A stretch of 64,000 nt of DNA from the NCBI RefSeq assembly GCF_024298765.1, contig NZ_CP101210.1; one strand, 5' to 3'. A program made the translations under genes and the position numbers. Source of the DNA: Escherichia coli. GTDB taxonomy: Bacteria; Pseudomonadota; Gammaproteobacteria; Enterobacterales; Enterobacteriaceae. This document shows, one piece after another, positions 5,089-42,578 of the stretch. The notes under the pieces were generated by a model that saw nothing but the letters and a program-made list of their open reading frames with translations, had not been told where the DNA came from and searched no databases. Every line of letters begins with the position of its first letter. Position 1 is the stretch's first letter.

Positions 5089-5868
5089 TTACGCCAGTTG
5101 TACGGACACGAACTCATCAGGGTCAGCCAGCAGCATCAGCGGTGCTGACTGAATCATGGTGAACTCACGCGCCGGATCGCCGGTGGTCACCCAGTTTTTC
5201 GGGTAACGGGCAGAGGCGTTAATGCCTTCGCGCTGTGCGTCCGCATCCTGAATGCAGCCATAGGTGCGCAGACCGCGTGCATGAGTGTTACCCAGCACCA
5301 TCGTGTTGTCCGGCAGGAAGTTCTTTTTGACGCCGTTTTCCACGTACTGTCCGGAATACACGACGATGGCCACATCGCCATACATCCCCTTATAGGACAC
5401 CGCTTTACCCAGGTCTTTCACCGCTGTCTCCAGCTCGGAATGAGAGCCGCGACGGGTATCCAGCTTCTCCTTGACGGCGTTGAAGGAACGGAACAGCGCC
5501 CAGCCTTTCGGATCAAACACGATGATATTCACCACGCCGCTGGCGTTCAGCGCGTAGGCTTCGATATCGTCGGTCGGGTCATACGTGGACTTGTCACGCT
5601 TGCTCCACTCCGTGCCGCCGGACTGCGTGATGTTGTTCGCCGCACTGCGGCCCATATCCACCTCAACCGGATCGAAGGCTTCACCGGTCATGGTGTATTT
5701 GCCCTTGAGCACGGCAGAAACTGCCTGCATCTCTTCGACCTGAGCAATGGCCAGCTCTTCGTCACGCATGTTCTGCAGGATGATGCGACGGCGGCGGTAA
5801 GCCGGGTCCGCCAGATTCTGCGGATCTTCATCCGGCAGGCGACGCAGGGTCATCTGCGGATTCACTTC
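5089..5868 (-). pseudogene. E: major capsid protein E, C-terminal ~258 codons, separated from its 5' part by a ~10.9 kb insertion
   Basis: ORF 5089..5865 begins EVNPQMTLRRLPDE..., i.e. lambda gpE from about residue 91; no start codon of its own. Confidence 0.9.
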
Positions 5869-5869
5869 A

Positions 5870-5879
5870 TGCTTGGGTT
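5870..5879. repeat. left junction direct repeat (att core copy) TGCTTGGGTT
   Basis: Identical 10-mer at 16754..16763; context atgcttgggtta vs gtgcttgggttt. Confidence 0.8.
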
Positions 5880-5955
5880 ACATGAGTCAAATATGAAAGG
5901 ATGTGAATGATTTGATTACGTTTTAGCTATAGAATTGAAATGGAAAATCCTTGAA

Positions 5956-5976
5956 TGCAATACAACGTGCAATACA
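5956..5976. repeat. GCAATACA direct repeats near left end (candidate arm-type integrase sites)
   Basis: tgcaatacaacgtgcaatacatgg; the same motif recurs at the right end. Confidence 0.45.
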
Positions 5977-6013
5977 TGGATGAAAACCATCACTCATTTA
6001 ACAAGAGGAATCT

Positions 6014-6919
6014 ATGCGCTCACCCAACAGAATGCATGAACGCTCAACATTTTATAAGTATATGTCGTTGAATACCGCGAAGATTGTTCTTGATTCATGC
6101 AGCCTTAGATGGAGTTCTCCGGTCCTATTTAATGACCCTTTTGATGTTCCAAGAGAAGTTATGCCTGGTATTAACGAAATTAATATTGGCAAAGCTTTAG
6201 CCCGCAAGTTAATAGCGGAGTTGATTACCCCCAGAGAAGACATACAAAATTTAAACCCTAGAATTAGAACAATGCTAAGTGATTTCCAAAAGTCATTTCC
6301 TTTAGGCATACCCGCAGGATTAATTGAAAGATTTCAAGAAATGGTAAACATTCCACCAGTTGGGATTGGCGCTCCTGCGGCAATACAAGAAATGAAAGAT
6401 ATCTGGCGAGGAATGCTTAATAACAGAAGGATTTTGTGTTTATCTGAGAGCCCTATAATCACTCCTATGTGGAATCACTATGCCGATAAATATAAAGGTA
6501 TAGTTATCGAATTTGATTGTGTAGACTTTCTGGATAGCGCTTGGTTAATAGCCAAACCTATGAAATACACAGATGAAATGCCTCTAACTCACACTGCTGA
6601 AGGGATGGCCGAGTTGCTTTTCATGCCAGACAATAAGTCAATTGAATATATCAATAATGAGATAATATTCATAAAAACAGAAGAATGGGCATATGAAAGA
6701 GAGTGGAGAATTTCAACCTACGCTAGGCCAAATAGCACTGGTCAATATAGCGACTTAAAATTTCACCCTTTTGAGTTAAAATCTGTAATACTTGGTCCTC
6801 TTTTTGATGCCAGCGAGTTCGATGAAGTCGCATCACTAGTTAAAATGTATCCAAGAGCGAAATTATTTAAAAGTTCATTTGGGAACGACAGAAAAATATC
6901 CATAGTACCACTACCTTAA
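6014..6919 (+). CDS. DUF2971-like hypothetical protein, AT-rich cargo
   Basis: 301 aa; motifs FYKY, LFNDPFD, EWAYEREWR recalled as DUF2971-like; codon usage visibly more AT-rich than neighbours; hairpin terminator follows. Confidence 0.6.
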   Translation: MRSPNRMHERSTFYKYMSLNTAKIVLDSCSLRWSSPVLFNDPFDVPREVMPGINEINIGKALARKLIAELITPREDIQNLNPRIRTMLSDFQKSFPLGIPAGLIERFQEMVNIPPVGIGAPAAIQEMKDIWRGMLNNRRILCLSESPIITPMWNHYADKYKGIVIEFDCVDFLDSAWLIAKPMKYTDEMPLTHTAEGMAELLFMPDNKSIEYINNEIIFIKTEEWAYEREWRISTYARPNSTGQYSDLKFHPFELKSVILGPLFDASEFDEVASLVKMYPRAKLFKSSFGNDRKISIVPLP

Positions 6920-7025
6920 AAGGTCAAATGCTTTTGACAAATAAAATCTATCGCCAGTTTTACTGGCGACTTTTAAGCAACAAAGAACCACCTAAGCACT
7001 CTTCCTACCTATGGTTTCATTTGTT

Positions 7026-7577
7026 TTAACTTCGCTGATTATCCTTGATATACCTTTCAGCCATATCTGGAATGTTATCTGAGATCTGGTAAGCTCGAAT
7101 AAATGCTTTACTGACCTCCATCTTAATGAAGTCCTGATACCGTTTTTCCATGCCAGGAAACTGTCGACAGATCGCAAGTGGAAGACTATCAATGATTGCT
7201 CCAACTTCCCCAGTTAATTTCGACAAGGCATAAGTCGCAAATGCAGTGTCAATTACCTCACCTGTTTCGCTGGCATTCTTCAGTTCCTGTGCGTCGGCCT
7301 GCGCACGCGTAAGTCGATGGCGTTCGTACTCAATAGTCCCTGGCTGGAGATCTGTCTCGCTGGCCTGCCGCAGTTCTTCAACTTCCCGGCGCAGCTTTTC
7401 GTTCTCAATTTCAGCATCCCTTTCGGCATACCATTTTATGACGGCGGCAGAGTCATAAAGCACCTCATTACCCTTGCCACCGCCTCGCAGAACGGGCATT
7501 CCCTGTTCCTGCCAGTTCTGAATGGTACGGATACTCGCACCGAAAATGTCAGCCAGCTGCTTTTTGTTGACTTCCAT
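7026..7577 (-). CDS. terminase small subunit Nu1-like; N-terminal ~100 aa identical to the prophage Nu1, C-terminal half divergent
   Basis: 183 aa; MEVNKKQLADIFGASIRTIQNWQEQG... identical to ORF 22397..22942 over the DNA-binding domain, then about half-identical. Confidence 0.85.
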   Translation of the reverse strand: MEVNKKQLADIFGASIRTIQNWQEQGMPVLRGGGKGNEVLYDSAAVIKWYAERDAEIENEKLRREVEELRQASETDLQPGTIEYERHRLTRAQADAQELKNASETGEVIDTAFATYALSKLTGEVGAIIDSLPLAICRQFPGMEKRYQDFIKMEVSKAFIRAYQISDNIPDMAERYIKDNQRS

Positions 7578-7599
7578 TGTTCATTCCACGGACAAAAAC

Positions 7600-7790
7600 A
7601 GAGAAAGGAAACGACAGAGGCCAAAAAGCTCGCTTTCAGCACCTGTCGTTTCCTTTCTTTTCAGGGGGTATTTTAAATAAAAACATTAAGTTACGACGAA
7701 GAAGAACGGAAACGCCTTAAACCGGAAAATTTTCATAAATAGCGAAAATCCGCGCGCCTGACGCCCCGTAGCCTGTCAGATCGCCGGAAA
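7600..7790 (-). other. cos-like site of the element: cosB conserved, cosN divergent
   Basis: Aligns base for base with prophage cos at ~22960..23150; the 12-nt cohesive-end sequence differs at 5 positions (aggtcgccgccc vs cgcctgacgccc on the + strand). Confidence 0.7.
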
Positions 7791-7822
7791 GGACCCGCCA
7801 GCCAGAGCGGGCCCTAATTTCA

Positions 7823-8206
7823 TCAACCAATCAGCTTATAGCGACCATCCCGTGCATTGCGGCGTACACGCTCAATCTTGAGGCATAGCGCCGCATCTGG
7901 CTTTTTTGGGACAGGTACGCGGCAATATTCAGAAGCGCGAGGAATATTATTTATCCAGTCGATCACTTCACTTAAATACCAGGCCTTACGCCCTTCCGTA
8001 ACCTGCACACGCTCCGGGAACTCTCCACTAGCCTCAAGGTTTAGCAGTGTACGCCGACTCAGGGTTGTAATTTCCATCACCTGATTCATATCAACAAGGC
8101 GCTCGCTTAAACACATTTTGTCAGCGATAGCTTTTAATTCCTCTACAGCTGGATTCGGGTACATCATTTCGGCAATTGGCTTAAGGTCATTGTAATCATT
8201 CTGCAT
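7823..8206 (-). CDS. AlpA-family DNA-binding protein with N-terminal extension
   Basis: 127 aa; C-terminal part (ITTLSRRTLLNLEASGEFPERVQVTEGRKAWYLSEVIDWI) resembles AlpA/excisionase-type wHTH. Confidence 0.6.
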   Translation of the reverse strand: MQNDYNDLKPIAEMMYPNPAVEELKAIADKMCLSERLVDMNQVMEITTLSRRTLLNLEASGEFPERVQVTEGRKAWYLSEVIDWINNIPRASEYCRVPVPKKPDAALCLKIERVRRNARDGRYKLIG

Positions 8207-8217
8207 TGTATCCCCCT

Positions 8218-8559
8218 TTACACACGAGCCAGCGGCTGAACAGAAATACCTGAGCCAACAAACGCTGCAATCTTTACTGACAGTTCTTTTACAGACTCAG
8301 GCCAGTTCAGAGCATCAACATTTAAGACACCTGTCTTATAGACCTGAGCCTGTGTTTTTTTCGCGGTGTCGATTTGTACAGCGGAAACATAAACCGCTTT
8401 ACCTACGCTCGAACCATCCCATACCACCAGTGCACCTGTTGCATCTTCCTGCATCAGTGGCGTAAATGCAGGAATTACCCCTTTATTAGCTGAAAATATC
8501 CCCAGCGTAGTCACCAGTGCTTCAGTGCCAGCCATGAGTTCAGTGTAATGAGTAGCCAT
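8218..8559 (-). CDS. head decoration protein, gpD family
   Basis: 113 aa; ...VVWDGSSVGKAVYVSAV...FVGSGISVQ parallels lambda gpD ...[17 protein letters not shown]...FAGTAISIV. Confidence 0.65.
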   Translation of the reverse strand: MATHYTELMAGTEALVTTLGIFSANKGVIPAFTPLMQEDATGALVVWDGSSVGKAVYVSAVQIDTAKKTQAQVYKTGVLNVDALNWPESVKELSVKIAAFVGSGISVQPLARV

Positions 8560-8568
8560 TGCTCCCCC

Positions 8569-9609
8569 TTAGCCAATGCGAACGGTAACAAAACGATTGA
8601 TGCGGGCCGGTATTGGCTGTGGTGCTGAATGTGTCTGCACATATTCAATAGCCGGATCACCAGGCACAATATAGTTTTTCGGTGCAAGTTCGGCTTTAGT
8701 CAGCCCCATTCGGATTAGCTCCGGATCCTGAATACCGCCATAGGCGACAATCCCCTGAAGAGCCGTATTGCCAAGCACCATCAAATCAGGATCAAGGAAA
8801 TGTTTTTCAGTTCCGTCCTCGTCGGTATAACGCCCGCTGTATACAACAATCGCAACATCGCCCATATACCCTTTAAAACTCACCGAATCACCAAGGTCTT
8901 TAAGGGCCGTTTCCAGTTCGGAATTAGAGCCACGACGGGTATCCAGAGCCTCTTTTATCGCTCTGAATGAACGGTATTTCTTCCATACATTACCGCCCAT
9001 AATGATGATATTAGTGACGCCCTCACTAAATTCTGCGTAGCTCTCAATATCATCATTTGGATCAAAAGTTTCTTTATCCTTACCTGACCACTCAGCACCG
9101 CCAGACTGAGTGATGATATTTTGTGGTTTAATATTCCAGTCCAGCTCATAACGTTCAATACCATCGCCCTCAATGATATTTTTCCCCGTTGTGATTGCCT
9201 GAACGGCAAGCCATTCAATACGTGCACGAATAGATTTAGCCTGATTTACAATCGCCTGTTTAACTTTAATATTACGCGCTCCAAAAGCATTGTATTGCTC
9301 AGGTGATACACCAGCAGGGCGCACAGCTAACTTATTTGGATCAATGCTGCTTTTCGGCTTCATATAGCCTGGACGAATTGTTTTTGATTCGTACCCTTCG
9401 TCACGTGAAACTTTACTACCCACCATAGGAGAACAAAACGCTGCAATTGGGATATTTGGATCGTCGATTGTATCAAGAATAATATCGCGCGATTCAAACA
9501 TTACCGAGCGAGTAAAAAACAAACTGGTAAACAACGCATTTAGTTGTTTTTGTACATCTACAGCATTAACCACCTGTACAAGCTGGGTAGGCGAATATAA
9601 ATCAACCAT
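8569..9609 (-). CDS. major capsid protein, gpE family, divergent paralog of prophage E
   Basis: ORF 8569..9783; likely start MVDLYSPTQL... after AAGAGG RBS; conserved blocks TQSGGAEWSGKDKETFDPNDDIESYA and TRRGSNSELETALKDLG match gpE. Confidence 0.8.
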   Translation of the reverse strand: MVDLYSPTQLVQVVNAVDVQKQLNALFTSLFFTRSVMFESRDIILDTIDDPNIPIAAFCSPMVGSKVSRDEGYESKTIRPGYMKPKSSIDPNKLAVRPAGVSPEQYNAFGARNIKVKQAIVNQAKSIRARIEWLAVQAITTGKNIIEGDGIERYELDWNIKPQNIITQSGGAEWSGKDKETFDPNDDIESYAEFSEGVTNIIIMGGNVWKKYRSFRAIKEALDTRRGSNSELETALKDLGDSVSFKGYMGDVAIVVYSGRYTDEDGTEKHFLDPDLMVLGNTALQGIVAYGGIQDPELIRMGLTKAELAPKNYIVPGDPAIEYVQTHSAPQPIPARINRFVTVRIG

Positions 9610-9826
9610 ACGCATCCTCTTTGCATTCATTAAAAATAATTGTGGATATATGCTATCACCGATATTTGTCATGCGAATACATGCAACCGAGTGCAATGTT
9701 GTATAAAGTTTTGGGATAACAACTTCAGCGCGGATAATTAGTGTTAATATCTTAACTCCCTTTGGTCGGGATTTATGTAGCATGCCGGAAAATTTATTTT
9801 TTTCCGGCCTTTTTTATTGGCAATAT

Positions 9827-10276
9827 TTAAAACGGAATATCATCTCCCCATTGCTCATTATCTCCCACTGGTGGATGGCTTCCTTGCTGATCTGCCTGTT
9901 GTTTTGCTCTGTTCAGTGCGTCAGTAGCCTGACCCTGTTGACCTTTTTTGCCGCCCGGTCGCACCGTTCGCGCACTGATTACGCTGTCTGCGATAACCTG
10001 CCAGCCCTGCCGCGTTTCACCGTTCTGTCCAGTCCACTGGCTCACCTGCATATTACCCGCCACGCTCAGGAGTTCGCCTTTGTGATGCTTTGCCAGCGCG
10101 TCGGCTTGTCTGCCAAACGCCAGGACAGATAACCACATCGTCGCCGTTCCGTCATCTGCCTGGCTGCATGGCAAAGATACCGCCATCCGTGCCAGTGTCA
10201 TGGGTGTTCCCTTGCTGGTATGTTTTACCTGTGGGTCGTCCACCAGCCGCCCGTAAGCTGCTATTTGCGCCGTCAT
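9827..10276 (-). CDS. SSB-like single-stranded DNA-binding protein
   Basis: 149 aa; OB-fold-like N-terminus and C-terminal acidic tail ending DDIPF, the SSB hallmark. Confidence 0.6.
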   Translation of the reverse strand: MTAQIAAYGRLVDDPQVKHTSKGTPMTLARMAVSLPCSQADDGTATMWLSVLAFGRQADALAKHHKGELLSVAGNMQVSQWTGQNGETRQGWQVIADSVISARTVRPGGKKGQQGQATDALNRAKQQADQQGSHPPVGDNEQWGDDIPF

Positions 10277-10287
10277 GCTGCCTGCTC

Positions 10288-10530
10288 TCAGGACTTAATA
10301 TTGATGGTTGTCACTTCCTCCGCTTCGGCAATCTCCCGTTCGGTCAGCGTGGCAAAGTTTGCAGCCGCCGTTGTCATGAATGCGCTTATCAGTTCGGGAT
10401 GTGCTTTCGCGTATCCTTCCCCGGCGTTGCGGTCTATTGCCTTAATCGCCACCCTTAGCCAGTGTTCAGCCATATCAAGGGCGCGGTAATGTGGCTTTAT
10501 ATGTTTGTTCAGTTTTCCTGATGTGTGCAT
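10288..10530 (-). CDS. hypothetical protein
   Basis: 80-aa ORF downstream of the iteron region, same strand as the replication genes. Confidence 0.4.
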   Translation of the reverse strand: MHTSGKLNKHIKPHYRALDMAEHWLRVAIKAIDRNAGEGYAKAHPELISAFMTTAAANFATLTEREIAEAEEVTTINIKS

Positions 10531-10569
10531 TTTTATTTTTACCCCCTCGTTTAAAAAGTTTTTTGTGCA

Positions 10570-10805
10570 CCACCACCTTGTCTACCTTGTCTACCTGATT
10601 AGTTATCAGGCCAGTAATGGCGCGGGTTTCAGGGAGGTAGACAGCCCCAAATAGCTGTCTACCTCATCTCTACCCGTCTCCTTACCTGTCTACAAAAATG
10701 GGTAGATAAGGTAGATAACAGGTAGACAGTGAAAAATAGTTATCTACCTGCATTAATGCATTGAAATAAAAGTATTTTATTTCAGTCAGGTAGACAAGGT
10801 AGATA
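10570..10805. repeat. iteron array GGTAGAYA (11 or more copies, both orientations): candidate replication origin
   Basis: ttgtctaccttgtctacc, ggtagacag, ctgtctacc, ggtagataaggtagataacaggtagacag, ttatctacc, ggtagacaaggtagataa; immediately downstream of the primase-helicase gene. Confidence 0.75.
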
Positions 10806-10819
10806 ACCATTGCCATTTT

Positions 10820-12571
10820 TTATAAAAACGCATCGCAATCATCAGTAGTCGTTGCGTTGGTCTGCGTGACTCCCTTAACTTTTCGCGTAATATATTCATA
10901 TCCGTAAACTTTCGCCGCTGACCTCATAGCCTTTCCGAACTCATTCACGCTCAAACATTTCCCCTTTCCTGTATATGCCATGAAGGCCATATAGACACGG
11001 TAAAGGCTGTTTCTGGTCGTGTACTTCACGGTGTCACCACCACCGCCCATCATTAGCCCACGAGCTTCCTCCAGAAACTCCAGCGCCGCGCAAAGCTCAA
11101 CAACCGGATCCGTTTGCTGCTTTATTGCCAGAGCTTCATCACCGTCACGCTGTTCCAGTAATAAAGCCCGTGCCTTTTCAGGGTCAGCAAAATTAGCCAG
11201 CAAGCGGCGGATAATTACGGGGATTTCTGCCGCTATCTTTTCCGGTAATTCCTTGTCTTTTTCGTCCTCCCTTACAATGTTGTCGAACCGGAAAATCACC
11301 CGACGGCGTGACACACCTCCGGCCCGTTCGGTAAAGATCATCGGGTCGTTATTGGTTGCCAGTACCACCGCCCTTATTATCGTCGTGAATCGCTTCTCAT
11401 ATTTCGGGTTAATTTCAACGGGATCGCCTCCCGTGATTTTCTTGATGCCCGTGCCTTCCCCCGTATATTTCGGCTGATCGGCAAGGACGATAAGACGACT
11501 CCCGACAACCTGCGCACGCCCTCCTGCATCATCGAGTGATGTCATCTCTGCGCTTACGGTGTTCTGTTTGCCAGCAAGCAGGGTGGCAATATGGGTAAAT
11601 GTACTCTTACCGCTTCCCCCGTCTCCGGTGGCCTCAATGAACATCTGCCAGTCGTACCGGTTCGCCATAATCATGTACAGCGCGGCACATATACGCATCA
11701 TCTTGCGCGGGTCTTTTCCGGCTGCGTGCTCAAGCCATTTATGAAAGTTTGGCGCGTTATCGCGGATGTTCTCCCCTGGTGCTGGTGGCGTGTACTCAAT
11801 GCCGTTGTGCGTGGTGATCCAGTTCTCCGGCGTGTGCGGGGAAAATTCCCCCGTTTTCAGGTCAAGCGCACCATTGGCGAACGGCAGCAAATCGCCGGAC
11901 GGCTCGCCCATTGGTTCGGCAATAACTTTTAACGCTTCAACGGCGTTATTGATCACGCGTTTGCTGAAAGTGGCCCTGTGCTCTGAATAGATCGCCACCA
12001 TTTCGCGGCTCAGCTCCATTGTGCTGATCGGACACCATACCCCGCCGCGCCATACGTGAACGATTTCACTTTCCGGATGCACACAAACGCCATCAAAGCG
12101 CTCGGCAAGCAGCTGCGCGCGCTCACTGTCTGCCATCTGTGAAAGTTGCGCCTTTTGCTTCGTCGGAAGATTAAGCACCAGGCTTTCCCCACGCTCGCAT
12201 TCCTCTTTGAGTCGCGGCAACTGGTCGGATAAATCCACTGGGCTGATGTCAGTAATCCCCGCGTATTCGTGTACGGTCTTCACTCCAGCCACAGCCAGTA
12301 ACGTAACAATCTGCGTCATGCTGTGCTCTGTGATATGTCCTGCGCGGTAAACACGCACACACTGACGATCTTCATCAATGATCCGGTAATCGGTGATGTT
12401 TTTCAGTTGCTCATCAGCCAACACGACAGGCGGCACATCGTCGGCGGCAATATGTTTACCCGCCCATTCCTGCCACTCTTTCGCATGGCTCCACGCATCA
12501 CTACCTGCAAAGATGATTATCTCTGTCAGTCTGTCGCGTGGCTGTTTTTTTAAGTTCGGTGCCAGTTTCAT
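10820..12571 (-). CDS. primase-helicase (P4 alpha / D5-type replication protein)
   Basis: 583 aa; Walker A GDGGSGKST in the C-terminal half; domain layout as in satellite and plasmid primase-helicases. Confidence 0.75.
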   Translation of the reverse strand: MKLAPNLKKQPRDRLTEIIIFAGSDAWSHAKEWQEWAGKHIAADDVPPVVLADEQLKNITDYRIIDEDRQCVRVYRAGHITEHSMTQIVTLLAVAGVKTVHEYAGITDISPVDLSDQLPRLKEECERGESLVLNLPTKQKAQLSQMADSERAQLLAERFDGVCVHPESEIVHVWRGGVWCPISTMELSREMVAIYSEHRATFSKRVINNAVEALKVIAEPMGEPSGDLLPFANGALDLKTGEFSPHTPENWITTHNGIEYTPPAPGENIRDNAPNFHKWLEHAAGKDPRKMMRICAALYMIMANRYDWQMFIEATGDGGSGKSTFTHIATLLAGKQNTVSAEMTSLDDAGGRAQVVGSRLIVLADQPKYTGEGTGIKKITGGDPVEINPKYEKRFTTIIRAVVLATNNDPMIFTERAGGVSRRRVIFRFDNIVREDEKDKELPEKIAAEIPVIIRRLLANFADPEKARALLLEQRDGDEALAIKQQTDPVVELCAALEFLEEARGLMMGGGGDTVKYTTRNSLYRVYMAFMAYTGKGKCLSVNEFGKAMRSAAKVYGYEYITRKVKGVTQTNATTTDDCDAFL

Positions 12572-12867
12572 TTTTTGCCCCTGAATGCGTTAATCATGCT
12601 TTTCATTTTCTGGATGTTTCCCCGCGCTTTTTCCCTGCTGATGGGCTTACTGCGGGGTGCGGCATATACCAGGGAAAAATCACGCCGGAACTGATAAACA
12701 GGCATCACGCAGTCATAGCTATACCCCTCACGACGGTAAGTGATGCGCCGTTCTGCCACGCCTTTAATCGTTACCGTGCCGCCGTATTTATCGCGGTAAA
12801 TATCGCCGTTCATAAATTCAGGCCGAGCGGGGCCGCTGGCAATAAAGCCAGAATTTTTCATTTCCAT
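12568..12867 (-). CDS. hypothetical protein
   Basis: 99-aa ORF, abuts the primase-helicase start. Confidence 0.4.
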   Translation of the reverse strand: MEMKNSGFIASGPARPEFMNGDIYRDKYGGTVTIKGVAERRITYRREGYSYDCVMPVYQFRRDFSLVYAAPRSKPISREKARGNIQKMKSMINAFRGKK

Positions 12868-12884
12868 ATTATTTATTCCTCGAC

Positions 12885-13106
12885 TTAACTCGACTTATTT
12901 GATAGCTGGGCACTATTTATTGCGTCATTGAGTTTTTCTGCTGCTTCATCAATAAGTGACAACAGGCCATAAGCAATATTTGCATCTTCATTGTCATTTA
13001 TGCAATCAAGCCACATATTTAATATTGCTTTTGCTGAATTATTTAAAGTTAATGAACTTTCTGCACATGCTAACAATTTAAAAAAGACTTCCCGTTCTGT
13101 ATTCAT
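12885..13106 (-). CDS. hypothetical protein
   Basis: 73-aa ORF in a tightly packed small-gene operon. Confidence 0.4.
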   Translation of the reverse strand: MNTEREVFFKLLACAESSLTLNNSAKAILNMWLDCINDNEDANIAYGLLSLIDEAAEKLNDAINSAQLSNKSS

Positions 13107-13298
13107 TTAATCCCCCACCAGCTTACTTTCTTCCTCAATCAAAAAACTAGCGACACTTCCCGAAAGACGCGCCAGTAGGCTCGCCAGTGCGGATATATCA
13201 GCATCTGTAATTTTGTTCGGGTATACCTCAAGAAGGCGGCAAATAATTTCTGTCTGGTGCGCACGTTCAGCGGCTTCGTGTAATGTGATTTCCTGCAT
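13107..13298 (-). CDS. hypothetical protein
   Basis: 63-aa ORF; its stop abuts the next ORF. Confidence 0.4.
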   Translation of the reverse strand: MQEITLHEAAERAHQTEIICRLLEVYPNKITDADISALASLLARLSGSVASFLIEEESKLVGD

Positions 13299-13483
13299 TA
13301 ATGCACCTCTTTTAATTCATACACTGCTGAAATAATGACTTGTGATAAGCCATATTCTGATGATTCGCTTCTCACCGCAGCAATAGCCGTCTGAACATTA
13401 ACAGCCTTCACATTCTGAGCGATACCAATTGTGTGGCCTATTGGGTTAACAGCTCGGGCAAATACACGGAAGGTTTTAAGCAT
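13298..13483 (-). CDS. hypothetical protein
   Basis: 61-aa ORF, first gene of the leftward operon. Confidence 0.4.
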   Translation of the reverse strand: MLKTFRVFARAVNPIGHTIGIAQNVKAVNVQTAIAAVRSESSEYGLSQVIISAVYELKEVH

Positions 13484-13863
13484 GACTCACTCCCTGGCGG
13501 ATTTTTGCAGCGAATACAGCAACACAACCGGACGGGCAACGGCTACGCGCTTCGCGTTCCGTCCAGGCGGTTACGTGGATGATTTGAGATTCTCCGGCAC
13601 TCAGTGCCAGAAAACGCCACACAAAGGCCGTTTGTGTGTGTACAAGGTGTGGTATATGATTTACAGCAACCATAACGGCTCCTAGTTTACGTTGTTGGTT
13701 AGACGCCCCGTATGTGTTCCCAGCACTGCGGGGCGTTGCTCTTTGTATTTCAACAATCCTTTCGGTGTGTTTCATGTTATGAGCGCATGAAACACACGTC
13801 AAGGCTTTTTGTATTTCTTTTTTTGTGTATACTGAAACACACCGATGATTAGGAGTTTCAGAA

Positions 13864-14169
13864 ATGGCAACGGCTAACAAAAACGCAAAATCACAACTGA
13901 CAACTGTCAGAGTCCCACTAGATGTTATGCAAGGGATGGAATCCGTTAAGCTGGACGGTGAAAGCAATGCCGGATTTATCGTAACCGCCATGCGCGGTGA
14001 AATCGCCCGCCGCCAGGCAGAAGGAAGCGGAGAAAATCCCCTCGTGTCTTCACTGGATGCCTTAGCTAAGGTCGAACAAATCGGCATCAAGGCAGCGGAG
14101 GAAATCGGGCAACTCGTAGCCGTCGCTCGTGAAGAACTCCAGCGGCGTAAAGCCAAAGAATCTGAATAA
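13864..14169 (+). CDS. putative ribbon-helix-helix transcriptional regulator
   Basis: 101 aa; AGGAG RBS; TVRVPLDVMQGMESV...NAGFIVTAMRGEI fits a beta-strand plus two helices; divergent from the small-gene operon. Confidence 0.5.
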   Translation: MATANKNAKSQLTTVRVPLDVMQGMESVKLDGESNAGFIVTAMRGEIARRQAEGSGENPLVSSLDALAKVEQIGIKAAEEIGQLVAVAREELQRRKAKESE

Positions 14170-14519
14170 TTAGTATCAGCGCCGTGATGTGAGTAACTAC
14201 GGCGCATTGCTATGTAAATACTGGCAATAAACAGAAAAGGTAGTTCTACTCCGAATAATTTTATCTGACACTACTCCTGAACTAACATGCGCTTATCTTA
14301 CAGGATATAAATATAAATCCATAAAATCACGATTAAATAAAGTCGCTCCAAACATAAACCACACCCAACGCTTAACAAGATAGCAACAAACAGGTAAATA
14401 ACTTGCAGAAATATTTATCGCAAGGATTATCATTATTAATGACAAATCACTTTACCAAGTCATTCCCCTCTCTTATCATAAAGAGAAAGTAATAAATAAG
14501 TTAAGGGAGTTAGAATGCT

Positions 14520-15056
14520 ATGAATCTAAAAAAAATAGCCACAAACACAAAAAACAAGATAACAGAAACATTTAATAAACTTATATTAGAGGCATCTAAA
14601 ACCCCCACACAAGATGAAATTAAAATACTTGAGAGAAGGAGTAAGAAGTTTAATTACTCCTTTTTCTCATACGCAGTCACAGGAGCTATAATAGTTTTTT
14701 GCTCTCAACCATTAATTAAATACGCAAACCCAATACTTATTTTATTGAGTGGTCTGTTACTGTCTATCATCATTATCATTCTCAGAATGATTTATATTTC
14801 ACAAGCGAATGCATCATGGACAACCAAAAAACGCTCACATGTACTAGTTCATTTTCTTTCTGCATGTTTCATAGCATCAACATTGACGTTGCTATATCAG
14901 GCTTACGATAATAACATCACACACAAATTGTACTGTAAAAATATACAACAACTTATTGAAAAAAGGATAAAAACAGAAAAAAACATCAGCATATTCAGTG
15001 GGATGCAATGCACCCCGGTATATGATTACTCTTTATTTGGATTTAATCTCTTATAA
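14520..15056 (+). CDS. hypothetical membrane protein, AT-rich cargo
   Basis: 178 aa; three hydrophobic segments (AVTGAIIVFCSQPLI, ILILLSGLLLSIIIIIL, VLVHFLSACFIASTLTLL); GGGAG RBS; AT-rich. Confidence 0.55.
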   Translation: MNLKKIATNTKNKITETFNKLILEASKTPTQDEIKILERRSKKFNYSFFSYAVTGAIIVFCSQPLIKYANPILILLSGLLLSIIIIILRMIYISQANASWTTKKRSHVLVHFLSACFIASTLTLLYQAYDNNITHKLYCKNIQQLIEKRIKTEKNISIFSGMQCTPVYDYSLFGFNLL

Positions 15057-15067
15057 AGAATGTTATT

Positions 15068-15101
15068 ACTGATTTGAGTACAAATTCTCAAATCAGTAAT
15101 T
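15068..15101. terminator. perfect 13-bp inverted repeat hairpin between convergent genes
   Basis: ttactgatttgag-N8-ctcaaatcagtaa. Confidence 0.5.
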
Positions 15102-15125
15102 CATAATATTTTATTCTGAGATAAT

Positions 15126-15353
15126 TTAAACTACCCACTCACCTCGAATCCATGCCTGCACTTCTGAAAGACGATATGCAACAGCAGTGGAACCAATCTT
15201 GATCCGCTTAGGAAATTTTCCTTCCTTCTCCAGCTTCCAGCGTGTGCTGTTCGCAAGAGTGGTTAGCTCCCGACATTCTTTCTCACGGATCATTCGGTCA
15301 ATGTTAGGAATGTACTCCAGACCCTTTTTATCAACAATTGCCATTTTTTTCAT
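15126..15353 (-). CDS. alpA: AlpA-family regulator/excisionase-like protein
   Basis: ORF 15126..15362; ...LTTLANSTRWKLEKEGKFPKRIKIGSTAVAYRLSEVQAWI typical of AlpA; directly follows int. Confidence 0.65.
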   Translation of the reverse strand: MKKMAIVDKKGLEYIPNIDRMIREKECRELTTLANSTRWKLEKEGKFPKRIKIGSTAVAYRLSEVQAWIRGEWVV

Positions 15354-15354
15354 G

Positions 15355-16590
15355 TTAACCAACCTTTTGTTTGAGGATTGTCACTTTTGAATCAGCACCT
15401 GCGATGCTATTGAGATATGTAGTCCAGAGTTCCAGAGCATCCAGTTTTTTAGCCATAAACTTACTCCGGTTGTAAACACCTGCCACGCCAGGTAGCGCAT
15501 GGCCTAACAGTTGTTCTACTACATAAAATTCAACACCGAGATCACTTAGATGAGTAGATAGCGTTCTTCTAAGGTCGTGTAGTGACCATTGTTTTTCATG
15601 GCCCAAACGTTTACCGATTTTCCCCCCAATCTTGCTTACGCTTTCTCTAATTCGCAGACTTCCCAGCACATAACCAGTATGTTTTGTCTCTTCGTGAACA
15701 TCCGTTACCCACTGTCGTAGAATTTCAGGTACTGGTCTGACGATTTCAACACCAGTTTTTGAGTGATCTTTTGGTACAGTCCAAACCCAACTTTCGAGAT
15801 CCCATTCGCTCCATTCTGATAATCGGGCTTCACTCATTCGACATCCAAATACTGTACAAAGCACAAACATTTTTCGCGTGTATTCAGACATTAGTTTTAA
15901 ATCAGGCTCGACAAAAATTGCCTTCCAGAGCTGGCCGAGTTCGGCTTCATCCAGAACCCGATCCCGCTTACCTGCAATCTGCCCCACATCACTCATGCGC
16001 AAATCCTTTAAAGCATCACACGTCGCGTACTGGCGTACCCGACAAAAACGAAGAGCTAATTTAGTGTCAGAAAAAACATACGCCGCCATAACTGGTGCAT
16101 TACGTTTAATTCGGTCAAAACAGTCCAGCCATTCATATAGGTGAGTGTCATTTACGGGCAAATGACCGATATAGGGAAAGATATGCTTTCGAAATCTGCC
16201 AAGCGTTACAGCATGAGTTTTACGACGCACCTTACAGTAATTTTCATACCAGTAATTTAGTGCATCCTCCACTGTAACTGGCTTTAAGCGTTCTTCAGCC
16301 TGAATCTTAATCTGGATACGCGGATCACGTTTGTCAGCCAACCAACCACGGCACTCGTCGCGCTTTTCCCTTGCCTGTTTGAGTGACATATCAGGATATT
16401 TACCCAACGTTAGCCAGACCGGAGCAGCCCGGCCACCTGCTAACCTGTAGAAGAAAACAAAGCTCACAGCCCCTTTAGTACTCACACGAATAGAAAGCCC
16501 CTTTCCATCAGCAATGGTGATCTGCTTTTCTCTGGGTTTCCCCAGATATCCTTTAAGCGCTTTGTCGCTCAGTTTGTTCTCGCCAGCCAT
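15355..16590 (-). CDS. int: tyrosine integrase, P4-like
   Basis: ORF 15355..16641; probable start MAGENKLSDKALKG...; C-terminal catalytic region with HDLRRT and GH motifs. Confidence 0.85.
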   Translation of the reverse strand: MAGENKLSDKALKGYLGKPREKQITIADGKGLSIRVSTKGAVSFVFFYRLAGGRAAPVWLTLGKYPDMSLKQAREKRDECRGWLADKRDPRIQIKIQAEERLKPVTVEDALNYWYENYCKVRRKTHAVTLGRFRKHIFPYIGHLPVNDTHLYEWLDCFDRIKRNAPVMAAYVFSDTKLALRFCRVRQYATCDALKDLRMSDVGQIAGKRDRVLDEAELGQLWKAIFVEPDLKLMSEYTRKMFVLCTVFGCRMSEARLSEWSEWDLESWVWTVPKDHSKTGVEIVRPVPEILRQWVTDVHEETKHTGYVLGSLRIRESVSKIGGKIGKRLGHEKQWSLHDLRRTLSTHLSDLGVEFYVVEQLLGHALPGVAGVYNRSKFMAKKLDALELWTTYLNSIAGADSKVTILKQKVG

Positions 16591-16605
16591 TTTTAGCCCC
16601 AAAAA

Positions 16606-16640
16606 GCAATACAAGCTGCAATACAGAGATGATTGCAACA
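16606..16640. repeat. GCAATACA repeats near right end (candidate arm-type integrase sites)
   Basis: aagcaatacaagctgcaatacagagatgattgcaacaca between int start and the right junction. Confidence 0.45.
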
Positions 16641-16752
16641 CACAGATAACGAGGAAAATTCAGTGAAAGCACCAGATAAACTTATTCTTTATTATCAAAA
16701 GATTAAGTGTAAAAACCAGCAACTACACGAAAGCCTCAGAAAGCCATGCTAA

Positions 16753-16998
16753 GTGCTTGGGTTTGACATATCCCGGCGTAAATTCAGAGGTGGAGCCGCC
16801 ACGGGAACGGATAACCTCACCGGAAACAATCGGCGAAACGTACAGCGCCATGTTTACCAGTCCCGGAATTTGTGAGAGATAGACTTTCTCCGTAGTGAAG
16901 GGATAGCTCTCACGGAAAAAGAGACGCAGAAACAGCGGATCAAACTTAAATTTCTGCTCATTTGCCGCCAGCAGCTGGGCGGTTGTGTACATCGACAT
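16753..16998 (-). pseudogene. E: major capsid protein E, N-terminal ~90 codons; frame runs into the insertion and stops at 16723
   Basis: ORF 16723..17025: MSMYTTAQLLAANEQKFKFDPLF...GYVKPKH then LAWLSEAFV* from element DNA. Confidence 0.9.
16754..16763. repeat. right junction direct repeat (att core copy) TGCTTGGGTT
   Basis: Identical 10-mer at 5870..5879. Confidence 0.8.
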
Positions 16999-17053
16999 AA
17001 AAAAATCCCGTAAAAAAAGCCGCACAGGCGGCCTTTAGTGATGAAGGGTAAAG

Positions 17054-17395: not shown

Positions 17396-18695
17396 TTACA
17401 CTGGTGTGTTCAGCAAATCGTTAACGGCATCAGATGCCGGGTTACCTGCAGCCAGCGGTGCCGGTGCCCCCTGCATCAGACGATCCAGCGCAGTGTCACT
17501 GCGCGCCTGTGCACTCTGTGGTGCAGCTGCCAGAATGCGGCGGGCCGTTTCCACGGTCATACCGGGGGTTTCGGCCAGCACGCGTGCCTGTTCTTCGCGT
17601 CCGTGAGCCTCCTCACAGTTGAGGATCCCCATAATGCGACTGTTTTCTGCCGCAACCGCTGCGGTGATCTGCGCGTTCACGTCCGGCTGCGCCGCGCTGG
17701 CGTTCTCGCCCTCCGTCGCTTGCACCACGCCAGTAACGTCAGCCTGCGAAGCAGTGGCTGAAACAGTTGTTGATTGAGTCTCTTTGGTCATTCGCCCTCC
17801 TGAGAGACGGGATTTACGTGCATCCAGTGCATCACGCATGACGGTGATCGCATCGGTACTGTTAACAAGTTCATCAGCCAGTCCGGCATCAATGGCCTCC
17901 TGACCGCTGTACACTGCAGCCTCGGTATCCAGCACAGCCTGCACGGACAGGCCGGTATATGCCGACACCTTCTGTGCAAACATCTGGCGGGTTGCGTCCA
18001 TCCGGGACTGCAGTGTCTCCCGGACGTCATCCGGAAGATGGCTGTAGGGATTGCCATCCACCTTATGGCTGCCGCTGTAAATCAGCGTGATTTCCACACC
18101 CTGTTTCTCCAGGGCAGCACCGTAATTACTGTGAGCCATCATGACGCCGATGGAGCCTGTCCGGGCGGTCTGCGTGACCAGACGCCGGGAGGCGGCACTG
18201 GCAAGCAGCTGACCTGCACTGCAGTTCATGTCGTTGGCCAGCGCCCATACCGGTTTTATGTCACGCACACGGGCGATGATGTCAGCGCAGTCAAATGCCC
18301 CCGCCACCATTCCGCCTGGCGTGTCCATATCGAGCAGAATGCCGTCCACCATCGGGTCGCTGGCAGCCTGTTGCAGACGGGCGATAATGCCGTTGTAACC
18401 GGTCATCCCCGAGTACGGCTGCAGCGCCCGCGTCCGGCTGACCAGCGTGCCGGACACCGGCAGCACGGCGATGCCGTTCATGACCTGATAACTGCGGGCC
18501 TGTCGTGGTCCGTCATCATCACCGGATAATGCCAGCGTCGCGAGTGCCTCCTGGGCAGTCAGGCTGTCGCCGGACACCGCATCCGTCAGGCGGCTGATCC
18601 CAAGCTGGCCTGCAAGCGCACAAAAGAAAACCCGCGCATAGGCGGGTTCAAGCATCAGCGGCTCATTAAAGGCCATGCTGGCAATATGCGGGAGA

Positions 18696-18715
<20 letters not shown>
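17396..18715 (-). CDS. C: head maturation protease C (with nested scaffold Nu3 frame)
   Basis: ORF 17396..18850; start MTAELRNLPHIASMAFNEP... gives 439 aa like lambda gpC. Confidence 0.9.
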
Positions 18716-22396
<3,681 letters not shown>

Positions 22397-22422
<26 letters not shown>

Positions 22423-22959: not shown

Positions 22960-23150
22960 AAAACAGAGAAAGGAAACGACAAAGGCCCAAAAGTTCGTTT
23001 TCAGCACCTGTCGTTTCCTTTCTTTTCAGGGGTTATTTTAAATAAAAACATTAAGTTACGACGAAGAAGAACGGAAACACCTTAAACCGGAAAATTTTCA
23101 TAAATAGCAAAAACCCGCGAGGTCGCCGCCCCGTAACCTGTCGGATCGCC
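22960..23150 (-). other. prophage cos site (cosB R/IHF elements plus cosN); cohesive-end sequence GGGCGGCGACCT at about 23120..23131
   Basis: aaaacccgcgaggtcgccgccccgtaacctgtcggatcgcc is the reverse complement of lambda cosN with flanks as recalled. Confidence 0.85.
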
Positions 23151-23330: not shown

Positions 23331-23525
23331 ATGTCAACGAAGAACAGAACCCGCAGAACAACAACCCGCAACATCCGCTTTCCTAACCAAATGATTGAAC
23401 AAATTAACATCGCTCTTGAGCAAAAAGGGTCCGGGAATTTCTCAGCCTGGGTCATTGAAGCCTGCCGTCGGAGACTAACGTCAGAAAAGAGAGCATATAC
23501 ATCAATCCAGAGTGATGATGAATAA
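23331..23525 (+). CDS. hypothetical protein (lambda orf64-like)
   Basis: 64-aa ORF between cos and bor, as in lambda. Confidence 0.6.
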   Translation: MSTKNRTRRTTTRNIRFPNQMIEQINIALEQKGSGNFSAWVIEACRRRLTSEKRAYTSIQSDDE

Positions 23526-23886
23526 ACATCCCGGTTTCTTCCACCATCGCACCGGAAAAGCGACTATGAGGGTAACCCTGCGTCTGTCAGCACAGTAAAA
23601 CCCGGTGTGCATCGTTTTTGATTATTCCCGCACACTCACGCAGAAGGAATTCCCCGTCGGGCTACGGTCATGGTTAATGCGGGAATACGGCGACGATACA
23701 GCGCAGCTAAAAGGGTAATGGACAGAAAGAGCGGTTTATTTCATTCCACAGGATTCTGAGTGCCCCCCCCTCCTCCAATAGGCTGAGCATCCACCTATAT
23801 AGTTTTAATTTTCATCAATCCATTTAACTATCGTTTAATTGTTGTCACATAGGATTCTGCCGTTTTTAACAATGCAGGATAATAAG

Positions 23887-24180
23887 ATGAAAAAAATGTT
23901 GTTTTCTGCCGCTCTGGCAATGCTTATTACAGGATGTGCTCAACAGACGTTTACTGTTGGAAACAAACCGACAGCAGTAACACCAAAGGAAACCATCACC
24001 CATCATTTCTTCGTTTCGGGAATTGGACAGGAGAAAACTGTTGATGCAGCCAAAATTTGTGGCGGCGCAGAAAATGTTGTTAAAACAGAAACCCAGCAAA
24101 CATTCGTAAATGGATTTCTCGGTTTTATTACTTTAGGCATTTATACTCCGCTGGAAGCGCGTGTGTATTGCTCACAATAA
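23887..24180 (+). CDS. bor: Bor lipoprotein (serum resistance)
   Basis: ORF 23839..24180; start MKKMLFSAALAMLITGCAQQTFTV... with lipobox; lambda Bor. Confidence 0.9.
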   Translation: MKKMLFSAALAMLITGCAQQTFTVGNKPTAVTPKETITHHFFVSGIGQEKTVDAAKICGGAENVVKTETQQTFVNGFLGFITLGIYTPLEARVYCSQ

Positions 24181-25527: not shown

Positions 25528-25954
25528 AAGCTGTGTGACGAAGTAACCACTCTTAACAGCATAACCAATTTTTTACGTACGTAAACCACTAAATGATATT
25601 TGCGAGAATGCTACCGAGTATTGAAAACACCACTACAAATACATAAGCAAATCTCAACAAATAACCAACAAATAATTTCCAGTGTTATTTTTAGCTGGTT
25701 TAAATTGAACCTTCAAATTATAGAGCACTTATAAATAACAGCCGTTAATATAAATTGGCTAACAGATTTATTTTTATTCAGCCAAGAGCCATGAATAGGA
25801 TTCGATAGAAAAAAGTTCAGATAAAAATAGAGATCTACTTCACAAATCAAACGAGAAACCAAAACTTACATCTTGAAATAATCACATTGATTAGATGAAT
25901 ATTTATCGCGCAGTGACATCATTTTTTAATAATAGTTCAAAAAAAGGGCTCACG

Positions 25955-27052
25955 ATGAAAAAATTAACAGTGGCAATTTCTGCTGTAGCTGCATCAGTAC
26001 TGATGGCGATGTCTGCTCAGGCAGCTGAAATTTATAATAAAGACAGTAACAAGCTGGATCTGTACGGGAAAGTTAATGCTAAGCACTACTTCTCCTCTAA
26101 TGATGCAGATGATGGTGATACTACTTATGCCCGTCTTGGCTTCAAAGGTGAAACCCAAATCAACGATCAACTGACTGGTTTCGGTCAGTGGGAATATGAA
26201 TTCAAAGGCAACCGCGCTGAATCTCAAGGTTCCTCCAAAGATAAAACCCGTCTTGCCTTCGCTGGCCTGAAATTCGGTGACTACGGCTCCATCGATTACG
26301 GCCGTAACTACGGTGTAGCATACGACATCGGTGCGTGGACTGACGTCCTGCCAGAATTCGGTGGTGACACTTGGACTCAAACCGACGTGTTCATGACTCA
26401 ACGTGCAACTGGTGTTGCAACCTATCGTAACAACGACTTCTTTGGTCTGGTTGATGGTCTGAATTTTGCTGCTCAGTACCAAGGCAAAAACGATCGTAGC
26501 GATTTCGATAACTACACTGAAGGTAACGGTGATGGCTTCGGTTTCTCTGCTACCTATGAATACGAAGGATTCGGTATCGGTGCAACTTATGCGAAATCTG
26601 ATCGTACCGACACTCAAGTTAATGCAGGGAAAGTTCTTCCTGAAGTATTTGCTTCCGGTAAAAATGCAGAAGTTTGGGCCGCAGGTCTGAAATATGACGC
26701 TAACAACATTTACCTGGCCACTACCTATTCTGAAACCCAGAATATGACTGTATTTGCTGATCACTTCGTTGCTAATAAAGCCCAAAACTTCGAAGCTGTT
26801 GCACAATATCAGTTCGATTTCGGTCTGCGTCCGTCCGTTGCTTACCTGCAATCTAAAGGTAAGGATCTTGGAGTATGGGGCGATCAGGACTTAGTCAAAT
26901 ATGTTGATGTAGGTGCAACCTATTACTTCAACAAAAATATGTCTACTTTCGTTGATTACAAAATCAACCTGCTTGACAAAAATGACTTCACTAAAGCACT
27001 CGGTGTAAGCACTGATGACATCGTTGCTGTAGGTCTGGTTTACCAGTTCTAA
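25955..27052 (+). CDS. outer-membrane porin, OmpC/NmpC/Lc family (lysogenic-conversion gene)
   Basis: ORF 25895..27052; start [23 protein letters not shown] signal peptide; [17 protein letters not shown]... and C-terminal VGLVYQF typical of general porins; sits between Q and S on the opposite strand as in DLP12/PA-2. Confidence 0.9.
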
Positions 27053-33442: not shown

Positions 33443-34300
33443 ATGAAGAAAGCAGCAATTTTAATTGATGCGGGTTTTTTCATGCAGCGTGTTCATGCTA
33501 CGCATCGTAAACACTTCGCCGAGCATGAACTGACTGCGCAATGCATAATGAAAGTAATATGGTCAATGGTTCTTTCCCATCTTAATGGAAAACGTCAATC
33601 ACAAGAACGTAGGGAACCGCTTGAGCTTTATAGAATTTACTTCTATGACTGTCCACCACTCGACATTCAAACACGCCTTCCACTTCCTGAGCCTGGCAAT
33701 AAGACGCCTGGTCGCAAGAATTTCAAACTCGAAAAATCATATATTCTGAGAACGGAGCTGCATGAAGAGTTAAGAAAAACTCGAAAAACAGCCTTAAGAT
33801 TAGGGAATCTTGTTGATAATAAGCGATGGCAACTAACTACATTCTCCCTTGATGCTCTGATGAAAGGAACGAAAAAATGGGATGAACTGACAAATGATGA
33901 TTTTTACTATGACATCAAACAAAAACAAGTTGATATCAAGCTAGGGATGGATATCACGACTTTAGCTTATGAAAAACTTGTTGATGTAATTGTCCTTGTT
34001 GCTGGGGACTCAGACTTTGTGCCTGCCGCCAAACACGCCAGAATTAAAGGTATTGATTTTATTCTTGATCCACTAAGACAGAATGTTACCCCATCACTGT
34101 CAGAGCACATTGATGGAGTTCAGTCATACAGCTTGATATCAGGACTTGCCGATGCTTTACATGTTGAGCCAGACCCGGCACCTGACTGGTGGGAAGATCG
34201 AAAAAAAGGCAAGCCTAGGGGAAAAAACAATAGCGGTAAACGCAGGTATGGAAACACTCAAGCTGAGTCTGCAAAGAAACATCAAAGAAATAAACGATAA
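33443..34300 (+). CDS. NYN-domain (LabA-like, PIN-like) putative nuclease occupying the rexA-rexB position
   Basis: 285 aa; MKKAAILIDAGFF... and VIVLVAGDSDFVPA motifs typical of NYN domains; basic C-terminal tail; downstream of cI on the same strand; not similar to RexA or RexB. Confidence 0.6.
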   Translation: MKKAAILIDAGFFMQRVHATHRKHFAEHELTAQCIMKVIWSMVLSHLNGKRQSQERREPLELYRIYFYDCPPLDIQTRLPLPEPGNKTPGRKNFKLEKSYILRTELHEELRKTRKTALRLGNLVDNKRWQLTTFSLDALMKGTKKWDELTNDDFYYDIKQKQVDIKLGMDITTLAYEKLVDVIVLVAGDSDFVPAAKHARIKGIDFILDPLRQNVTPSLSEHIDGVQSYSLISGLADALHVEPDPAPDWWEDRKKGKPRGKNNSGKRRYGNTQAESAKKHQRNKR

Positions 34301-36217: not shown

Positions 36218-36289
36218 GTGCGGCTTTACCGCATACCAATAACGCTTCACTCGAGGCGTTTTTCGTTATGTATAAATAAGGAGCACACC

Positions 36290-36430
36290 ATGCAATATGC
36301 CATTGCAGGGTGGCCTGTTGCTGGCTGCCCTTCCGAATCTTTACTTGAACGAATCACCCGTAAATTACGTGACGGATGGAAACGCCTTATCGACATACTT
36401 AATCAGCCAGGAGTACCCAAAAATGGATAA
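36290..36430 (+). CDS. cIII: CIII (FtsH inhibitor), apparently 8 codons shorter than lambda CIII
   Basis: [46 protein letters not shown] then stop, inside ORF 36218..36430. Confidence 0.8.
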   Translation: MQYAIAGWPVAGCPSESLLERITRKLRDGWKRLIDILNQPGVPKNG

Positions 36431-42532: not shown

Positions 42533-42578
42533 AGGCTTCAACGGATTCATTTTTCTATTTCATAGCCCGGAGCAACCT

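Follow-up and report, generated by a model that had tools for sequence, protein, structure and literature searches.

The locus described here raises the question of what separates the two halves of a capsid gene, and what would become of that gene if the intervening DNA were to leave. In a stretch of 64,000 nucleotides from Escherichia coli (assembly GCF_024298765.1, contig NZ_CP101210.1; hereafter the window, with positions counted from its first letter), gene E, which codes for the major capsid protein of a lambda-like prophage, is split by an element of about 10.9 kb lying between identical copies of a 10-mer, and the coordinates and the repeat given for it in an initial annotation of the sequence were both confirmed. 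We conclude that positions 5880-16753 are very probably a helper-embedded phage-inducible chromosomal island (HE-PICI) of the site group E:Phage_cap_E:80, and no sequence contradicting this membership was found. The initial annotation was not aware of a described E. coli satellite with its attachment site in a helper capsid gene; its suggestion of novelty did not stand, as the element is already known and its family has been published (preprint 2022; Tommasini, Mageeney & Williams 2023, NAR Genom Bioinform 5:lqad036, PMC10111431) as Eco567.11capE and E:Phage_cap_E:80.

The break in E can be placed to the base. A minus-strand open reading frame (ORF) at 16723..17025 carries lambda-type gpE residues 1-82 (MSMYTT...GYVKPKH), followed by 9 foreign codons and a stop at 16723, and a second minus-strand ORF at 5089..5865 is the remainder of gpE, (E)VNPQMTL...VSVQLA. 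The N-terminal helper fragment thus occupies 16754..16998 (minus strand; codons 1-81 and the CA of His82, with the core at its end) and the C-terminal one 5089..5869 (minus strand; the T of His82, codons 83-341 and the stop), so that the split itself was rightly recognized in the initial annotation, whereas the length of about 90 codons given there for the N-terminal piece is in reality 82, with His82 as the junction codon. The 10-mer TGCTTGGGTT, which reads AACCCAAGCA in the direction of E, stands at 5870-5879 on the cargo side, as read from the sequence, and at 16754-16763 on the integrase side, where the block is listed also in the supplement of PMC10111431; these are its only two copies on both strands of the window, and the expectation that a single gene broken at two points would show the same 10-mer precisely at each of them by chance is about 4^-10. 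The core coincides with E codons 79-82. As E can claim it on either side, what is specific to the element runs from 5880 to 16753, an inter-repeat interval of 10,874 bp (10,884 bp counting one core) with a G+C content of 44.7% vs about 57% in the late genes on either side, a sharp break.

When the flanks are joined at one repeat copy, with no base lost or gained, an uninterrupted E of 341 aa results, in which the Pfam model Phage_cap_E spans residues 5-339 (model positions 1-328) and the junction falls near model position 78-80. Precise excision would therefore restore E, as had been proposed, and it is in this sense that the insertion concerns the reading frame; the wording "inserted in frame" is meaningless for a 10.9-kb insert that meets a stop after 9 codons. 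The junction codon was likewise correctly given as His in either case, with the refinement that after crossover within the core the repaired E receives CAT and the CAC goes to attP. The predicted junctions are GACTCATGTAACCCAAGCACTTAGCATGGC for the satellite attP and, on the plus strand, TTCACTTCATGCTTGGGTTTGACATA for the repaired E. Nothing in attP replaces the lost part of E, and no E sequence stands upstream of the C-terminal fragment; the gene is thus interrupted for as long as the element stays in place, and with the stop after the foreign codons the prophage would make no major capsid protein of its own in that state. The capsid gene of the satellite shares only 5 of the 10 core bases at the matching position and, as the initial annotation had noted, does not offer the target. 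Taken together, the sequence shows a site-specific and precise insertion, an intact recombination apparatus, and an element with a replicon and cos of its own that points the same way as the helper late operon: like E, the genes int, alpA, pri, capsid and terS are all on the minus strand.

The uninterrupted gene exists elsewhere. It was looked for in 5,426 complete E. coli genomes and 50,697 phage records. A 234-bp reconstruction of the empty site (attB) has a 100% match in the free phages ev099 and PhiR68_2. Matches covering the greater part of it occur in 80 phage records and in 3,103 of the 5,426 E. coli genomes, and many of these genomes carry it at 100% identity; the uninterrupted E with ...ttcacttcaTGCTTGGGTTtgacata... 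that had been predicted for phages and genomes is thus present at 100% identity. The element interval, on the other hand, is in none of the phage records except for about 530 bp of cos-Nu1, which speaks for an insertion rather than ancestral sequence. These data also bear on the idea of an ancestral mosaic phage with two capsid modules, whose E fragments would stem from an old duplication or rearrangement. The element does carry homologues of E, D and Nu1, and a 558-bp stretch is 95% identical to the cos-Nu1 region of the helper prophage of strain 104; but the E fragments join exactly into a 341-aa gene found intact in free phages and E. coli, the interval is missing from phage records, and the sharp G+C break is accompanied by the integrase, AlpA and att arms of a site-specific element, so that such a mosaic is highly improbable and in effect refuted.

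A 401-bp probe for the integrase-side junction, counted where at least 80% of it was covered, was found in 172 of the 5,426 complete E. coli genomes (about 3%), NRG857c among them, and the pairing of this integrase with this attachment site inside E that the initial annotation had suggested looking for is thus common. The capsid fragments on either side of the element bear the RefSeq labels "missing C-terminus" and "missing N-terminus" in strains 200177, 104 and NRG857c. That the configuration arose by misassembly, a satellite contig having been joined to the prophage at a short repeat, has practically no probability and is refuted: the repeat is indeed only 10 bp long and nothing else is in favour of such a join, while the same junction occurs in these 172 genomes from unrelated projects and the same configuration was verified in NRG857c by read counting and quantitative PCR (qPCR) (PMC10111431). 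In addition, an attP junction as predicted was found at 6601-6630 of one human gut-metagenome contig, the single one obtained in a metagenome scan, L032 (ENA ORSG01002381, 8,651 bp), with the order pri-capsid-D-HTH-cos-terS-attP-int-alpA (HTH, helix-turn-helix gene) and an integrase 99.5% identical to that of the window. Its permuted gene order is what one would see in a circle after excision or in a concatemer, and equally in two copies in tandem. No attP junction was found in IMG/VR.

The means for site-specific recombination stand just inside the right junction, where a P4-type integrase, an AlpA-like gene and, inside both ends, short repeats had been noted in the initial annotation and were confirmed. 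The tyrosine integrase (15355..16590, minus strand, 411 aa) has P4-type Arm-DNA-bind_3, SAM-like and catalytic (Phage_integrase) domains with its catalytic residues present (HxxR at 338, Tyr373). It is identical in 411/411 residues to the integrases of strains 104 and 200177, and in 409/411 to that of the NRG857c element, from which it differs by A55D and V410A, both away from the HxxR and Tyr motifs. Next to it lies an AlpA-family excisionase/regulator (15126..15353, minus strand, 75 aa; phrog_2790, excisionase and transcriptional regulator), 75/75 identical to the NRG857c copy. Pairs of GCAATACA occur inside both ends, at 5957/5969 and 16606/16618, and form doubled arm-type motifs on the minus strand, TCTGTATTGCAGCTTGTATTGCT (16605..16627, just upstream of the integrase start, about 132 bp from near edge to core centre) and CATGTATTGCACGTTGTATTGCA (5956..5978, about 81 bp). 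Neither of the cores and none of the four arm half-sites is damaged. A doubled motif tgTGTATTGCantgTGTATTGCa has been reported on both sides of the attP centre, upstream at 81+/-2 bp and downstream at 132+/-2 bp (PMC10111431). The P arms of three cargo types proved unrelated except for about 9 bp by the core and the doubled motif at its fixed spacing, and the retention of this motif in otherwise unrelated P arms provides independent support for the published idea that it is a protein-binding arm site.

Eco567.11capE of E. coli NRG857c has been described as an 11-kb PICI-like island in a lambda-type E with a 10-bp identity block, whose own capsid gene is too diverged for self-integration (PMC10111431). 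It shares with the window element the target codon, the 10-bp block AACCCAAGCA, the orientation to E, an integrase-side att arm that is the same but for one base, the doubled TGTATTGC at 81 and 132 bp, the zone order integration/regulatory/replication/late, and a capsid-decoration-HTH-cos block that is 98% identical. They differ in the replication module, which in the window (10483-13877) is a diverged allele left unaligned by default BLASTN; in the small terminase, with no terS there (per PMC10111431) and a full chimeric terS together with DUF2971 here; and in the helper, which sits at icd in NRG857c and at the lambda attachment site (ybhC) here. The supplement of the same study lists E_Phage_cap_E_80 elements with the block aacccaagca and helpers at PBP|ybhC, as in the window. 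This entry, with the near-identity to the NRG857c element, makes the window element an instance of the described family, of which 201 elements were mapped at the E site, with 290 at 13 other late-gene sites (PMC10111431). It also has the features by which Gram-negative PICIs are recognized (Fillol-Salom et al. 2018), namely int and alpA at one end, a primase with an adjacent origin and a size of 10.9 kb, within the 10-20 kb range, and no lysis or tail protein was found among its ORFs in PHROG and NCBIfam scans or RefSeq annotations.

What happens in NRG857c upon induction has been followed experimentally. After mitomycin C the composite of helper and satellite was excised at 1 h and then replicated (qPCR and read counting), and precise excision of the satellite followed at 2-3 h, in 42-98% of composites, yielding attP and a repaired E; it was proposed that E cannot be expressed before the satellite has excised, so that the capsid is delayed (PMC10111431). 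The excision foreseen in the initial annotation has thus been shown for a near-identical element.

The late zone of the satellite combines helper-like and divergent parts. The major capsid protein (8569..9609, minus strand, 346 aa) is 42% identical to helper gpE and the head decoration protein (8218..8559, minus strand) shares 38% of its residues with helper gpD, whereas for portal, protease and large terminase there are genes in the helper and none in the element. The capsid and decoration genes are followed, immediately upstream of cos, by a second AlpA-family winged-helix protein of 127 aa (7823..8206, minus strand; 8c3t AlpA family, E 2e-9). This protein was considered as an Rpp homologue and rejected as such, since it matched AlpA instead, with no Rpp chain at E<=1 in a sequence-only search. 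The satellite cos site (7600..7800, minus strand) closely resembles that of the helper on the cosQ side and through cosB as far as the start of terS, whereas the cosN 12-mer, GGGCGTCAGGCG at 7755-7766, differs at 5 of 12 positions from the canonical GGGCGGCGACCT of the helper at 23120-23131. The variant is also kept in the NRG857c element, and it occurs in none of the phage records and in 28 IMG/VR contigs. In three of the latter, L005 (1258-1278), L023 and L031, it stands directly upstream of a helper-type Nu1, the gpA being 99-100% identical to that of the resident helper and the E of L005 uninterrupted. These prophage contigs rule out a packaging signal confined to satellites and indicate that the variant is also a lambdoid cos allele, which to judge from the gpA sequences is probably cut by this helper's type of terminase. 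Satellites inside canonical-cos helpers nevertheless retain the variant allele.

Downstream of cos lies a chimeric small terminase gene, terS (7026..7577, minus strand, 183 aa). Residues 1-102 of its product are identical to helper Nu1, with 97/98 against lambda Nu1 in PDB 6hn7, and its C-terminal 84 aa have at most 42% identity to anything among the phage records. Other E-site satellites (L009, L011, L019, L020, L027, L030, L032) carry a different small-terminase gene, about 38% identical, at about 166-639 bp downstream of the satellite cosN. With the chimeric terS, the alternative terS and the type element, which is said to have none, the slot after cos has at least three alternative states. 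The N-terminal region of Nu1 serves in DNA binding and self-association, and the C-terminal part includes the gpA-binding end. The chimeric protein could join helper Nu1 in mixed oligomers, and might thereby poison helper packaging or favour cuts at the satellite cosN. That this cargo variant, with a chimeric terS, a helper-type cosB and a divergent cosN, follows a packaging strategy undescribed for HE-PICIs is a tentative suggestion, and one that we hold to be rather doubtful.

Between terS and the cargo-side att site, a DUF2971 gene (6014..6919, plus strand) matches the PADLOC phage-defence candidate PDC-S31; apart from the genes of the regulatory zone, no other gene of any size runs against E. 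In strain 104 and NRG857c the cargo consists of a truncated Nu1 remnant with DUF262 and HEPN genes (L002:2063-3779; L003:2282-3998), and the cargo of the window, full terS with DUF2971, is common to only about 5 complete genomes and four IMG/VR contigs. The cargo end, beside the att site, is a place at which defence-type genes and variants of the small terminase are exchanged, and both the DUF2971 and the DUF262/HEPN cargoes look like anti-phage genes.

The remaining part of the element is devoted to replication and, putatively, regulation. The replication zone (10820..13483, minus strand) comprises three small ORFs, a DUF4222 protein (12568-12867, minus strand) and a P4-family primase/DUF5906 protein of 583 aa (10820-12571, minus strand), directly downstream of whose gene lies a dense iteron array (10575..10811), in which AGGTAGACA/TGTCTACCT is repeated at least 10 times, some copies being inverted relative to others. 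This array is probably the replication origin of the satellite, and PICI origins have been placed at the corresponding position (PMC6092414). Towards the late zone follow a hypothetical 80-aa ORF (10288-10530, minus strand) and a single-stranded-DNA-binding protein (SSB; 9827-10276, minus strand). A variable regulatory zone (13476..15056), in the position of the "Bro" zone of PMC10111431, contains a predicted membrane ORF of 178 aa (14520-15056, plus strand), a YlcI/YnfO-like ORF (13864-14169, plus strand) and an Icd-like ORF (about 13476-13673, minus strand). A C4/isrK RNA had no Rfam match in the element at the gathering threshold or at E<=1, the NCBIfam scan had no match for the small ORFs, capsid, terS and DUF2971, and a promoter and terminator scan of the element came out near shuffled expectation.

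As for the helper, tail genes stand at one end of the surrounding prophage as far as it is visible, and int and the att-lambda core at the other. Over 87% of a 25-kb segment (17500-42450) the identity to the isolated phage mEp332 is 98%, and the segment also resembles Lambda closely. Its A, B and C genes lie at 17396-22422 and its lambda-type integrase of 356 aa at 41374-42444, followed by a lambda P' arm and core (42460-42535, with TTAGTATAAAAAAGC at 42518-42532) and then by ybhC, with pgl and modF beyond. The att core next to ybhC places the helper at the classical lambda attachment site.

The state of this helper matters for a further explanation, that of a dead insertion, in which a fossil element has permanently inactivated a decaying prophage and excision no longer takes place in this strain. 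Many HE-PICI helpers look truncated (PMC10111431), the closest full-length copy of the element, in strain 200177 (99.4% identical), has an internal stop in terS, and the tail-fibre end of the prophage lies beyond the window. In the window copy, however, all core genes are full length, and terS is intact along with the cores and arm half-sites; the integrase is that of strains 104 and 200177 and all but two of its residues are those of an enzyme shown to excise; and the visible 37 kb of the helper are 98% identical to isolated phages, with ORFs of normal length for Nu1, A, B, C, D, Rz, R, Q, O, P, cI, N and int. A dead insertion is therefore quite unlikely, and an excisable HE-PICI remains our reading. 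Some limits apply to it nonetheless. Excision, replication and packaging of the window copy are predictions from its sequence; the helper can be judged only outside its tail-fibre end; the 5/12 mismatch of cosN with the resident helper raises the question whether its terminase cuts the satellite cosN, although prophages with a gpA 99-100% identical bear this variant too; the attP junction of L032 could equally derive from a tandem pair, and its coverage is just 2.9x. No plaque-forming helper or satellite particles were recovered in the published work either (PMC10111431), and owing to this failure helper dependence and transfer remain presumed.

With these reservations, the life of the element may be pictured as follows. 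The embedded satellite would block helper capsid synthesis and be replicated passively. Read-through from the helper late promoter would probably transcribe it, providing integrase and AlpA late and leading to excision, so that E expression would be delayed and helper yield reduced. The freed circle would then replicate from the primase/iteron origin, and the helper terminase would package it from its own cos into heads that then receive helper tails. Packaging, interference or defence would putatively be modulated by the satellite's genes for capsid, decoration protein and small terminase, together with DUF2971.

Precise excision that restores a gene at a defined moment is known as regulated gene integrity, with skin in sigK of Bacillus subtilis and phage phi10403S in comK of Listeria as examples. 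In these systems the interrupted gene is not that of a helper phage, as it is here, and the timing is thought here to serve the satellite. It is unlikely that the insertion is above all a switch serving the prophage or the host, for instance as a safety catch on spontaneous lytic bursts or for the timing of head synthesis. Integration does disrupt a gene that excision repairs, attP brings no replacement sequence, and a candidate defence gene could benefit the host; but the element can draw on a replicon, a cos and head genes of its own, the cargo in its slot varies, and its helpers sit at different sites (icd, ybhC), all of which points to an independently transmitted satellite, the view favoured by the authors of PMC10111431 as well. 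The switch and parasite readings are not mutually exclusive.

Several known satellites resemble the HE-PICI described here in part. EcCICFT073, the model Gram-negative cos PICI (Fillol-Salom et al. 2018 ISME J, PMC6092414; 2019 Mol Cell, PMC6739421), shares int-alpA, a primase gene followed by an origin, homologues of capsid and decoration genes, cos, a similar size and lambdoid helpers, but it is integrated elsewhere in the chromosome than its helper. There cosN is retained, cosB is foreign and Rpp retargets the helper small terminase, whereas here cosB is helper-like, cosN is a variant and terS is the element's own. Deletion of the capsid and decoration genes of EcCICFT073 left interference unrelieved (PMC6092414). 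Satellite phage P4 has in common the Arm-DNA-bind_3 integrase, the P4-family primase C-terminal domain and helper dependence, which is presumed for the window element, and differs in its P2-like rather than lambdoid helper and in its tRNA gene site as opposed to a site inside the helper; the PHROG scan of ten element proteins assigned none to Sid, Psu or Delta. A major capsid and a small terminase of their own are found likewise in capsid-forming PICIs (cf-PICIs; Alqurainy et al. 2022/2023, bioRxiv 10.1101/2022.09.08.507074), but these encode a full head and packaging set, with large terminase, portal, protease/scaffold and head-tail connectors, and borrow tails only, whereas the window element has only capsid, decoration and small terminase.

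Some further features of the prophage and the window may be recorded. A 285-aa NYN-domain protein (33443-34300, plus strand) lies immediately downstream of cI, in the rexAB position, with weak PADLOC matches (HEC-09, NYN nuclease), and may be a prophage defence gene. Accessory (moron) genes of the helper, all on the plus strand, are an OmpC/OmpD-like porin between Q and the lysis genes (25895-27052), a Bor/Iss-type lipoprotein (23839-24180) and, in the interval from the lysis genes to cos, an ORF of the YlcI/YnfO family (23331-23525), so that there is one YlcI/YnfO-like ORF in the helper and a second in the satellite. The window has no tRNA genes, and its only above-threshold Rfam match is the lambda cIII thermoregulator element (36277-36335, plus strand, 88.5 bits).

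To what is known of the family, this study adds the count of 172 genomes, the metagenome contig with an attP junction, the chimeric terS and the variant cosN. The configuration is a common one, found in about 3% of complete E. coli genomes, and an intact copy with a full terS, in a lambda-like helper at the lambda attachment site, is convenient for questions of packaging and particles. What is left to follow up, to a modest extent, is the packaging module in this cargo variant, and if the suggestion made for it is true, the chimeric terS would be a functional analogue of Rpp, or of TerS/Ppi of the Staphylococcus aureus pathogenicity islands (SaPIs), derived from a captured helper gene. A satellite that keeps the helper's capsid gene hostage would, if new, be a striking case of cis-acting parasitism, though this one is already in the literature.

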